Origin: a phage
Reading direction: 5' to 3' (one strand)
Sequence record: PZ402301.1
DNA: 64,000 nucleotides
Below, piece after piece: positions 6,513 through 60,800 of the stretch. The number at the start of each line of letters is the position of its first letter. Position 1 is the stretch's first letter. The position numbers and the translations under genes are program-made. A model generated the notes under the pieces. That model was not told the DNA's origin. It was given only the letters and a program-made list of their open reading frames with translations, and did no database searches.

Positions 6513-6701
6513 AAGTTTTCCATGGTAAAGGCAGTTTAGTTTTCTTTACTGTTAGTTCAACATCAGGATTCTTTTCCCTTAATTTAAGGCATTCCTCCCA
6601 AGCTCTGATTTCACTAGTGAATACACAAAATTGTCCATTACTAGTACCAACTAAACCACTATTTACAATAATAATAGCCCAAGTTTCATGATGTAAAGCC
6701 A

Positions 6702-9359: not shown

Positions 9360-10947
<1,588 letters not shown>

Positions 10948-16290: not shown

Positions 16291-17117
<827 letters not shown>

Positions 17118-18412: not shown

Positions 18413-18450
18413 TTCCTCTTTAATCATCATCAGCAGTATTGCCGATAGTT

Positions 18451-18483
18451 GTATAGTACCACAGTATGCTTTGGTTGTAAACC
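18451..18483 (-). promoter_or_regulatory. early promoter for the frd.x-frd-td transcription unit
   Basis: GTTTAC (rc of 18477-18482), TACTATAC -10; immediately downstream of gene 32 terminator. Confidence 0.6.
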
Positions 18484-18504
18484 GTTTTGTGAAAAAATTT
18501 TTGA

Positions 18505-18533
18505 AATAAAAAAAGGGGACCTCTAGGGTCCCC
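18505..18533 (-). terminator. rho-independent terminator downstream of gene 32
   Basis: Hairpin GGGGACCctagaGGTCCCC followed by U-run on minus strand. Confidence 0.75.
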
Positions 18534-18555
18534 AATTAATTAGTAATATAATCTA

Positions 18556-35085: not shown

Positions 35086-35123
35086 TTTCTAATCTCCGTA
35101 ATTCTGTATCAGTAGTTGATAGT

Positions 35124-35157
35124 TGTATAGTACCACAGTATGCTTTGGTTGTAAACC
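35124..35157 (-). promoter_or_regulatory. early promoter upstream of motA (near-identical copy of 18451-18483)
   Basis: GTTTAC (rc of 35151-35156), TACTATAC -10; about 70 bp nearly identical to promoter at 18445-18517. Confidence 0.6.
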
Positions 35158-35177
35158 GTTTTGTGAAAAAAATTTTG

Positions 35178-35207
35178 AAATAAAAAAGGGAGAGCCTCGG
35201 CTCTCCC
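35178..35207 (-). terminator. rho-independent terminator upstream of motA promoter
   Basis: Hairpin GGGAGAGCC-GGCTCTCCC followed by U-run on minus strand. Confidence 0.7.
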
Positions 35208-35213
35208 TAAAAT

Positions 35214-38236: not shown

Positions 38237-38258
38237 TTTCTGTTCCTCTGTAGTTGAT

Positions 38259-38295
38259 AGGGTAATAATACCACAGAGGAACAGTCTTGTAAACA
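38259..38295 (-). promoter_or_regulatory. early promoter-like element
   Basis: GTTTAC (rc of 38289-38294), TATTATTAC -10. Confidence 0.5.
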
Positions 38296-46865: not shown

Positions 46866-47147
46866 TTAATTGAACAGTGGAGCGATGCGTTTCAGAAGAG
46901 TAGCAGCACCTTTGGCGAATTTTACATCATGAAAAACAGTTTCTTCTTCCGTTACAACACGAACTTTAATGTTTTCACAATCCCAATTTTTGCGAACAAT
47001 CTTCAAAAGCTGCAGTAAATCTTTACATTCAGCAATATCGATAACACATCCACGAGAATCTTCCATTATCGCACGATAACCATAAGCCATACCATAATCG
47101 TTGAAAGATTGTTCGATGATAATTAAGTTTTCCATTTTATTCTCCAA
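46866..47147 (-). CDS. hypothetical protein, 93 aa
   Basis: ORF track; palindromic promoter-like region upstream (47160-47205). Confidence 0.55.
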   Translation of the reverse strand: MENKMENLIIIEQSFNDYGMAYGYRAIMEDSRGCVIDIAECKDLLQLLKIVRKNWDCENIKVRVVTEEETVFHDVKFAKGAATLLKRIAPLFN

Positions 47148-47232
47148 GTTATTTTCTGTATCAGTAGTTGATATTGATATAGTACCATAATCAACTACTG
47201 ATGTATATAGTTTTATGAAAAAATTTTAAACT

Positions 47233-47730
47233 TTATGCACAGCGGGCTTTGCTATAGTGTTTAATCCAACTTTCAGGAATGGCTTTGTATGTTCCTAAAA
47301 ATACCGCGTTGTACAACTTAACGCCATCTTCTACCCATTGATCGGTAATGTATGCACACATAGCGCGAGTACGACGTTTTTGAACAACCCCTTCTTCGTC
47401 TTCGGTAAATTCAAATTCATAAGGAGCGACGAACTTAATAGCTTGACCGAGTTTCCACTTAAAGTCTACGCCTACATGCGAAGTATCAATCGTTTCAATT
47501 CCTTTAGCAGGAACAGCTTTCAAAAAAGCAGACTCAAGAAATTTCGCACGAACATAGCCAAACTGAGGTTTAGACTTTCCATCTTTAGGAATGATACGCA
47601 CTTTTACTTCAGAATCTTCATCTTTAACGCCATGTTTAAGCTGAATGCTTACAATTTCGACCAATTTTCCTGCTGCTTTAGAACGGGATTTATCAGATAC
47701 ACGAGCAATTTCACCAATATTAATAATCAT
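47233..47730 (-). CDS. hypothetical protein, 165 aa (T4 motB position); paralogue of next ORF
   Basis: ORF track; shares C-terminal motif C.Y/W.TDQW(V/I)EDGV with ORF 47807-48349. Confidence 0.6.
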   Translation of the reverse strand: MIINIGEIARVSDKSRSKAAGKLVEIVSIQLKHGVKDEDSEVKVRIIPKDGKSKPQFGYVRAKFLESAFLKAVPAKGIETIDTSHVGVDFKWKLGQAIKFVAPYEFEFTEDEEGVVQKRRTRAMCAYITDQWVEDGVKLYNAVFLGTYKAIPESWIKHYSKARCA

Positions 47731-47771: not shown

Positions 47772-47805
47772 ACCATTATACTCTGATCCCAAGAGTTTGT
47801 AAACT
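47772..47805 (-). promoter_or_regulatory. early promoter-like element upstream of 47233-47730
   Basis: GTTTAC (rc of 47799-47804), TATAAT -10. Confidence 0.5.
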
Positions 47806-47806
47806 A

Positions 47807-48349
47807 TTAATTTAAAATAGCTACCACCGCACTACGAGGTACTACACTAAAATCGCCTGCATGCACAACATTCAGAAGTTCAACGCCATCTTCAATCCAT
47901 TGGTCTGTTACCCAACCACAGACCGAAATAAATGGGGTCTTGATAGCTACAGCACGAGTTAAAAGGTCGGTAGGGTCTTGTTCTTCAACTTCTTGGAACA
48001 GGATGAACTCTGCTTCATAAACCAGGATTTTCTCTATTTTGTTATTGTCTAAACGACGACCGTGAATGACGTAAGATTTGGCAAACCAGCCACTTTTGGC
48101 AAATTCTTCAACAATAAATTCGCCTTCGCCAAAAACATCAGTCAAAGTTTTATGGCCGGAAATCAAGGCATTAGTTTTAATTTCAGGTTCAACCAGTTTG
48201 TAGGTTTTGCCGATTTCAATAGCGGTAGTCATAGTAGGTTCCTTAATTTCCAGTGGTTCAACAGGGCATACATAAGTGCTTACAACATCAAAATCAATCA
48301 GTTTAGCTACCGGATTTGGTGTGTATTCAGGATTATAATTAAATTTCAT
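47807..48349 (-). CDS. hypothetical protein, 180 aa; paralogue of 47233-47730
   Basis: Shared motif GWVTDQWIEDGVELLNVVHAG vs AYITDQWVEDGVKLYNAVFLG. Confidence 0.6.
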   Translation of the reverse strand: MKFNYNPEYTPNPVAKLIDFDVVSTYVCPVEPLEIKEPTMTTAIEIGKTYKLVEPEIKTNALISGHKTLTDVFGEGEFIVEEFAKSGWFAKSYVIHGRRLDNNKIEKILVYEAEFILFQEVEEQDPTDLLTRAVAIKTPFISVCGWVTDQWIEDGVELLNVVHAGDFSVVPRSAVVAILN

Positions 48350-60738: not shown

Positions 60739-60765
60739 TTTCTTTTCTCCGCGATTAGCTGATAG

Positions 60766-60800
60766 AATTACTATAACACAACTCTATCAGCTTGTAAACT
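60766..60800 (-). promoter_or_regulatory. early promoter-like element
   Basis: GTTTAC (rc of 60794-60799), TATAGTAA -10. Confidence 0.5.

Follow-up and report, generated by a model that had tools for sequence, protein, structure and literature searches.

The window analysed here, a stretch of 64,000 nt of phage DNA (sequence record PZ402301.1), is a T4-like (Tequatrovirus) genome, in which the minus strand carries the early genes. At the locus of interest the minus-strand gene order is motB, an unnamed small ORF, cef and goF and, since these genes and the promoter described below are all on the minus strand, a placement which the earlier note on this DNA had left out, the palindrome that separates motB from the small ORF must be read as its reverse complement. 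The gene upstream of the hairpin, motB (47233..47730, minus strand), ends with a TAA stop codon at 47235-47233, and its transcript reads into the hairpin; the presumed source of this read-through RNA is the early promoter of motB, which has the consensus form TTTACA-17-TATAAT (47775..47803, minus strand). Two motB-family genes stand in tandem on the minus strand (47807-48349, 180 aa, and 47233-47730, 165 aa); the set of paralogs of this family varies among relatives, with the swap junction at the conserved gene end ...GCATAAAGTT. The DNA binding of MotB is, we assume, non-specific. MotB is reported as a DNA-binding protein (PMC6070864), and a search of IMG/VR with MotB returned 7 loci only. 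A link with a replication origin was considered and discarded: the 'ori type 2 repeat' of Kha5h is a 10-bp feature inside motB, unrelated to the palindrome.

On the other side of the palindrome lies an ORF of 89 aa (46866..47135, minus strand, ATG at 47135), which belongs to the function-unknown PHROG 3720 and for which relatives annotate a 270-nt CDS. The earlier note had rightly placed an ORF here, but its length of 93 aa has to be corrected, the TTG at 47147 being part of the Shine-Dalgarno (SD) sequence CTTGGAG. The region matches several hundred Tequatrovirus genomes with 90-99% identity (526 records with a 1.2-kb query and 537 with a 201-nt query), and the homology of relatives breaks at two points of the window, at ~47239, where the upstream gene is swapped, and at ~47125-47129, just after the ATG of the downstream ORF, where the latter is deleted. 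The first break is seen in RB68, RB3 and ECP2301: a different motB-like gene stands upstream in these phages, and the junction, GCATAAAGTTTAAAA, lies shortly before the motB stop codon. As for the second, T4, T6 and genomes like them have lost the ORF that separates motB from cef; in T4 the remnant consists of the start and the C-terminal end, an out-of-frame stretch of 11 codons, in a motB-cef gap of 170 nt (NC_000866 6483-6652). The deletion falls between AAAA microhomologies inside the ORF, and is not an exchange between two PeSLs (promoter-early stem-loops), the cassettes of A/T-rich tract, sigma-70-like early promoter and stem-loop defined in RB49 and phi1 (Arbiol et al. 2010, PMC2839356).

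The palindrome had been described as a perfect 11-bp inverted repeat at 47167-47177 and 47191-47201, with 13 bp between its arms. The two 11-mers, CAGTAGTTGAT and ATCAACTACTG, are indeed exact reverse complements, but they lie at 47162-47172 and 47190-47200, and the gap between them is 17 nt. In full, the perfect repeat measures 13 bp (ATCAGTAGTTGAT at 47160-47172, ATCAACTACTGAT at 47190-47202; same 17-nt spacer) and, when mismatches are allowed, becomes a near-palindrome of 43 nt, with 20-nt arms that are 85% complementary and 3 nt between them. Read on the minus strand (47160..47202), this consists of a 13-bp outer stem, a 2x2 internal loop, a 5-bp inner stem with one G.U pair and a 3-nt loop. 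It is the sole perfect inverted repeat of at least 13 bp (spacer 3-30) in the 64-kb window, while the number expected from 60 dinucleotide-preserving shuffles is 0.07 per window on average; thus, the palindrome is no chance feature. Another perfect inverted repeat, of 11 bp, is found at 17051-17081 (GATTATGCAAT/ATTGCATAATC, 9-nt spacer).

The palindrome is part of a cassette that fills the whole 97-nt gap from the motB TAA to the ATG at 47135 and shows, on the minus strand, the order motB stop, UP-like tract, −35-like hexamer, arm-bearing spacer, −10, downstream arm, GGAG and ATG. The A/T-rich, UP-element-like tract AAGTTTAAAATTTTTTCATAAAAC (47210..47232, minus strand) directly follows the motB stop and is homologous to the corresponding tract of the consensus promoters; A+T makes up 88% of the 25 nt that precede the −35 hexamer. 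The hexamer itself (47202..47207, minus strand) reads TATACA, or ATATAC in the GTTTAC register, and agrees at 5 of 6 positions with TTTACW, the −35 of the T4-type early promoter consensus (PMC4122927, PMC1524935); a good GTTTAC −35 is missing, as had already been noticed. By comparison with TTTACW-N17-TAYWAT, the TACTAT hexamer, the TGn and the 17-nt spacing all match. T4 early promoters have been described as UP/−35/TGn/−10 promoters (Hinton 2010, PMC2988021). The −10-like element recognised by the earlier note within the spacer of the repeat, TATAGTACC at 47178-47186, is the −10 of an early promoter in its extended form TGgTACTAT (47179..47187, minus strand; TGg at 47187-47185, TACTAT at 47184-47179) and occupies the apical part of the hairpin. 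In gene sense, the upstream (5') arm ATCAGTAGTTGAT (47190..47202, minus strand) starts on the final base of the −35-like hexamer and runs on through the first 12 of the 17 spacer nucleotides, and the downstream (3') arm ATCAACTACTGAT (47160..47172, minus strand) would represent positions +1 to +13 of the transcript. From the T4 consensus numbering (PMC1524935) we infer that transcription starts at 47172 (minus strand), at an A placed 7 nt after the −10, which is the first base of the downstream arm. The SD GGAG (47145-47142) begins 14 nt past the hairpin and, with the ATG at 47135-47133, forms the initiation site of the downstream ORF (47133..47145, minus strand).

A simple sigma-70 scan of the window did not list this site. 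The T4 records NC_000866, AF158101 and M89919 annotate only CDSs at the palindrome, the papers on MotB, DksA and GoF do not discuss the site, a search for maps of T4 transcription starts found none, and no 5'- or 3'-end mapping of the site was found. A MotA-dependent middle promoter was also considered and set aside, as there is no TGCTT box at about −30.

The cassette was compared with other early promoters. The sequence GGTACTATA, complement of TATAGTACC, occurs 5 times in the window, against 0.36 expected, and four of the five copies are in early-promoter contexts. The fifth copy (10510-10518, minus strand) has a TGCTT at MotA-box distance and no GTTTAC, and looks like a middle, MotA-dependent promoter with an early-type −10. 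The consensus early promoters at 35155, 39018 and 18481 (with GGTACTATA at 35134, 38997 and 18460) have the form GGTTTACA, 17 nt, TGgTACTAT; their UP-like tract, −10, leader (CAACTATCAACTACTGATACAG) and SD are found at the focal site too. Moreover, the focal cassette, copies of which are found at 3-5 places in each related genome, matches two T4 records with author-annotated −35 and −10 signals, namely msp1 (L13089) and the 'early promoter 54.4' upstream of nrdC.10 (U76612), and in both of them the hexamer homologous to the focal TACTAT is annotated as minus_10_signal. The two T4 cassettes are 73-86% identical to ours over about 100 nt and have the same UP-like tract, the same TGgTACTAT, the leader CAACTATCAACT(ACT)GATA and GGAGAATAAAATG; unlike the focal one, they have consensus (T)GTTTAC −35 boxes and unrelated spacers, and Pe54.4 possesses a short palindrome of its own, CATAAAG/CTTTATG, within the spacer, plus a separate upstream terminator. 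The sequence of the focal downstream arm is shared with promoter 35155 and with the T4 msp1 promoter, and the differences between the focal and the paralogous cassettes are concentrated in the −35 (TGTTTACA vs TATATACA) and in the spacer, which indicates that the downstream arm is ancestral and the upstream arm derived. This gives substance to the suggestion that a leader had been fused to its own reverse complement: the paralogs have the downstream arm as their conserved leader, and its reverse complement, lodged in the −35/−10 spacer, forms the upstream arm. Two cassettes of ~75 nt, at 18440-18535 and 35115-35210 (minus strand), are nearly identical to each other and consist of a G/C hairpin with a T-run terminator, UP tract, GGTTTACA and TGgTACTAT; being in direct orientation and 16.7 kb apart, they are classic PeSL-type homologies, which could mediate deletion or mini-circle formation.

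The earlier note had held that its reading would fall if no transcript started here and related phages lacked the palindrome; as the palindrome is conserved among them, this refutation fails, and T4 has an identical one (NC_000866, about 6582-6624). A core of 63 nt is error-free in 431 of the 534 matching relatives, while the surrounding 1.2 kb are only 90-99% identical. In JE01 the TACTAT becomes TATTAT, a change in the loop which is still consensus; in RB18 the second outermost pair is broken; in EC121 a base is changed upstream of the −35; and in VEc74 (MT932213 6081-6151) two A-to-G changes each convert an A/C mismatch into a G-C pair, bringing the stem to 16 bp (TGCATCAGTAGTTGAT/ATCAACTACTGATGCA) and impairing the −35-like hexamer still more (TATACA to TATGCA), a 16-bp variant present in one record only. 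Within Tequatrovirus the core is almost invariant and, for this reason, gives no base-pair covariation signal. We then compared the position downstream of the motB-family gene(s) in other genera. At the orthologous site Dhakavirus keeps TATACA and TACTAT (or TAAGAT), with the arms GGTAGGGTA/TACCCTATC; in Mosigvirus, arms of 13 bp (TTCTCCTCTGGTT/AACCAGAGGAGAA) enclose a consensus GTTTAC promoter, and the SD lies within the 3' arm; and Gaprivervirus has only a GATAGGG/CCCTATC hairpin, with no −10 in the loop. Pairing has thus been kept across genera while the sequence was replaced, which points to selection on a nucleic-acid structure and not on a protein-binding sequence.

The predicted RNA structures depend on where the transcript begins. 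The focal hairpin alone, as minus-strand RNA, has a folding energy of −20.2 kcal/mol (z = −5.1), a value only slightly different from the −18.0 kcal/mol of the plus-strand RNA, and a read-through RNA of 121 nt folds the hairpin with −24.3 kcal/mol (z = −3.3). By contrast, the RNA begun at the predicted +1 is unstructured (−0.6 kcal/mol): it lacks the upstream arm and, therefore, the hairpin can form only in RNA coming from upstream. In the minimum free energy fold, the U-rich UP tract pairs weakly with GGAGAA. Masking of the SD is not predicted at the focal site, as the accessibility is essentially equal in the two RNAs, with an unpaired probability of the initiation region of 0.47 in the local and 0.41 in the read-through RNA. 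The hairpin is not a canonical intrinsic (Rho-independent) terminator either, because it has no U-tract and only 4 of its 13 outer pairs are G-C; it is followed by ACAGAAAAUAAC, and it was absent from the terminator scan. The covariance models of Rfam gave no match at E <= 1 between 46800 and 47600 on either strand.

Published expression data for T4 give indirect evidence. In the wild type at 5 min, the read densities are 32.6 reads/nt for motB, 32.8 for cef and 41.2 for goF (PMC6024815 Table S1). The equal densities of motB and cef imply that any attenuation is weak or balanced by initiation; transcription in T4 is thus neither strongly terminated nor strongly started anew at the palindrome. 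In the deletion of host dksA, T4 cef and goF are up 1.33-fold (adjusted p = 5e-4 and 3e-8, respectively) with motB at 0.96-fold (PMC6024815 Table S1), a hint that fits a modest, independent and DksA-sensitive start between motB and cef. Such a start is not among the early promoters listed in PMC6024815.

Early promoter-like sites of the form TTTACW-N16/17-TAYWAT were listed on the minus strand of the window, giving 22 sites. Perfect complementarity of at least 7 bp between a promoter's own spacer and its own 45-nt leader was found in 7 of the 22, compared with 20 of 462 cross pairings, and the mean spacer-leader duplex energy was −11.8 kcal/mol, against −7.5 kcal/mol for the cross pairings; in 20,000 permutations the observed value was never reached. 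No stem is longer than the focal one, and the others are those of promoters 38293 (12 bp), 60798 (10 bp), 2150, 2542 and 61286 (8 bp each) and 6030 (7 bp). In the class as a whole, folding is more stable for the sense than for the antisense RNA (−13.9 vs −10.2 kcal/mol, Wilcoxon p = 0.001), and this bias remains after subtracting the composition effect measured on shuffles (p = 0.014), which favours a role at the RNA level over a cruciform or an operator. The accessibility of the initiation region is, class-wide, 0.43 in the read-through and 0.59 in the local RNA, a comparison in which the read-through RNA is also longer and length is not controlled for; a strong masking of the SD is predicted at 38293 (0.16 in read-through and 0.69 in local RNA), 53870 and 2542.

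At 38240-38284 (minus strand, −35 at 38293) a consensus early promoter has its −10, TATTAT, enclosed by a 12-bp perfect inverted repeat, CTGTTCCTCTGT/ACAGAGGAACAG; the SD GAGGAA falls within the 3' arm of this repeat, and the drop in accessibility resembles the cases of T4 e and soc. Spacers complementary to their own leader or SD also occur at 60757-60792 (promoter 60798), 2150, 2542, 6030, 9355, 48908, 53870, 58319 and 61286; overall, about a third to half of the 22 sites have this feature, with a bias towards the sense-strand RNA.

Taken together, these data suggest, with a slightly better than even chance in our judgement, that the palindrome is a PeSL-type stem-loop whose hairpin forms only in the read-through motB RNA, where it acts as a weak intercistronic insulator or stabiliser, and that the weakened early promoter in its loop starts an unstructured RNA. 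The cassette would be a standard copy of a T4 early promoter in which the −35/−10 spacer became the exact complement of the first 13 transcribed bases. RNA started at the weakened embedded promoter would lack the upstream arm and stay unstructured, whereas read-through from the strong motB promoter would carry both arms and form a hairpin of approximately −20 kcal/mol between the cistrons; the selected function would then presumably lie in the read-through RNA. The hairpin could stabilise or delimit the motB message and mildly attenuate read-through, the embedded promoter could top up the transcription of the downstream ORF, cef and goF, and the repeated sequence of the cassette may provide homology for gene swaps at its edges.

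A different possibility, which we consider unlikely, is that the palindrome acts as DNA, through a cruciform or through hairpins in single-stranded replication or recombination intermediates, either tuning its own promoter or serving as a recombination hot spot (for instance as a substrate of endonuclease VII) that shuffles the neighbouring genes. PeSLs have in fact been proposed as recombination linkers, with a possible stem-binding protein (PMC2839356). At our site, the junction GCATAAAGTTTAAAA of RB68, RB3 and ECP2301 marks a break in homology where the cassette begins on its upstream side. The palindrome has an A/T-rich centre, and the cruciform idea of the earlier note keeps a small probability, since either DNA strand is predicted to form a hairpin of about −11 kcal/mol; what disfavours it is the better folding of sense than of antisense RNA in the class, where many stems depend on G.U pairs, which only the sense RNA can use and which would be A.C mismatches on the other DNA strand. 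Moreover, the perfect arms are 17 nt apart, a separation that disfavours cruciform extrusion, and the deletion of the adjacent ORF used AAAA microhomology inside the ORF and not the palindrome.

The structure could also be a by-product with no function, left when a templated mutation (strand-switch or quasi-palindrome) gave a decaying promoter a spacer copied from its leader, and simply retained since then, a view to which we assign the same low probability as to an action at the DNA level. The ancestral state of the downstream arm and the degenerate −35 agree with it, and the upstream arm departs from the spacers of the paralogs in many positions together, the pattern expected of a templated event. 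It is, however, difficult to reconcile with a 63-nt core that evolves much more slowly than the flanking coding DNA, with the persistence of a stem at this position in three other genera with unrelated arm sequences, with the enrichment of the spacer-leader architecture among early promoters, and with VEc74, in which two pairs were gained by two separate A-to-G changes that a single template switch does not explain.

An operator, at which a dimeric phage or host protein would bind the two 13-bp half-sites and repress the embedded promoter, seems to us highly improbable. The perfect dyad is centred on the −10 and the centres of the arms are about 30 bp, or about three helical turns, apart, a geometry that would suit it; yet the upstream arm in sense orientation occurs once only in the window, each promoter of the class has an arm sequence of its own, and the orthologous sites of the other genera keep pairing and not sequence. 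We know of no candidate repressor for the palindrome. The operator suggested by the earlier note thus finds no support, as the arms differ at every promoter and genus examined, and complementarity rather than a sequence for protein recognition is what has been conserved. Hardly more credible is a promoter placed further upstream, made of GTTTAA (47231-47226) and TATATA (47209-47204), from which transcription would start in or before the upstream arm so that the hairpin would protect the downstream mRNA as a 5'-terminal stem-loop: the two hexamers are similar to T4 early elements and 5' hairpins stabilise E. coli mRNAs, but we rejected it because their gap is 16 nt in the GTTTAC register (15 in the sigma-70 register), 2 bp short of the 18 of T4 promoters, the alignment of the paralogs puts GTTTAA within the UP-like tract and TATA(T)ACA at the position of the −35, and transcription begun 7 nt past TATATA would start within the arm, at the cost of several pairs.

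Returning to the stem-loop in the read-through RNA, the eye-catching palindrome can be explained by the standard regulatory grammar of T4-type phages, with no need of a new element, and it was already present in T4. What our analysis adds is a clean example, in T4 itself, of a hairpin enclosing an early promoter; since T4 lends itself to genetics, the site could be used to test promoter-embedded stems that mask no ribosome-binding site. Nor can the spacer of T4 early promoters be treated as free sequence, a point of importance for predicting promoters and for engineering T4-like phages. In a more tentative vein, and at odds we would put well below even, a large share of T-even early promoters might be built inside sense RNA hairpins, the spacer supplying the 5' arm and the leader or SD the 3' arm, as a genome-wide means of discriminating read-through from local transcripts that insulates small gene cassettes; the stems would be kept by compensatory or templated change, and at the motB site the hairpin might be outliving its promoter, as the degenerate −35, the extension of the stem in VEc74 and the promoter-less hairpin of Gaprivervirus suggest.

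The closest known elements are the PeSLs. Like them, the focal cassette is intergenic and comprises upstream stop codon, A/T-rich tract, a putative sigma-70-like early promoter, SD and start codon, has a stable stem-loop overlapping the −10, is repeated across the genome and sits at points of gene gain, loss and swap between close relatives. In RB49 and phi1 five positions of the stem-loop have been published, most often between −35 and −10 or overlapping the −10, and the elements lie preferentially upstream of ORFans and were proposed to be terminators or attenuators of upstream transcription (PMC2839356). The stems of RB49/phi1 are G/C-rich (Gn-loop-Cn), one of them terminating as strongly as rrnB T1, whereas the focal stem is A/T-rich, has no U-tract and embraces the −10 of a promoter with a degenerate −35. 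PeSLs were later extended to the T4/PST pair, with promoters of the form TTTACW-N17-TAYWAT and stems just upstream of the promoter (Comeau et al. 2014, PMC4122927). The focal stem, by contrast, embraces the −10, and it follows that the sense-biased subclass of the T4 genus with stems around the −10 may lack an explicit description. Judged on its sequence, the focal element has the features of a PeSL apart from a one-base deviation in the −35, with a promoter activity that is predicted.

A second parallel is offered by the T4 genes e, soc, 49 and I-TevI, in which a promoter inside a hairpin gives a translatable RNA while the read-through RNA is masked (Uzan and Miller 2010, PMC3014915). The logic of the focal site is similar, since transcripts coming from upstream hold both arms and fold, and those from the internal promoter, given the predicted +1, would be without the 5' arm. 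In these four genes, however, the promoters are late ones and the 3' arm sequesters the SD or the AUG, whereas the focal promoter is of early type and its SD, 14 nt beyond the stem, is not predicted to be masked. The sites 38293, 53870 and 2542 and the Mosigvirus orthologue come closer to them, as in these the SD is indeed masked according to the predictions.
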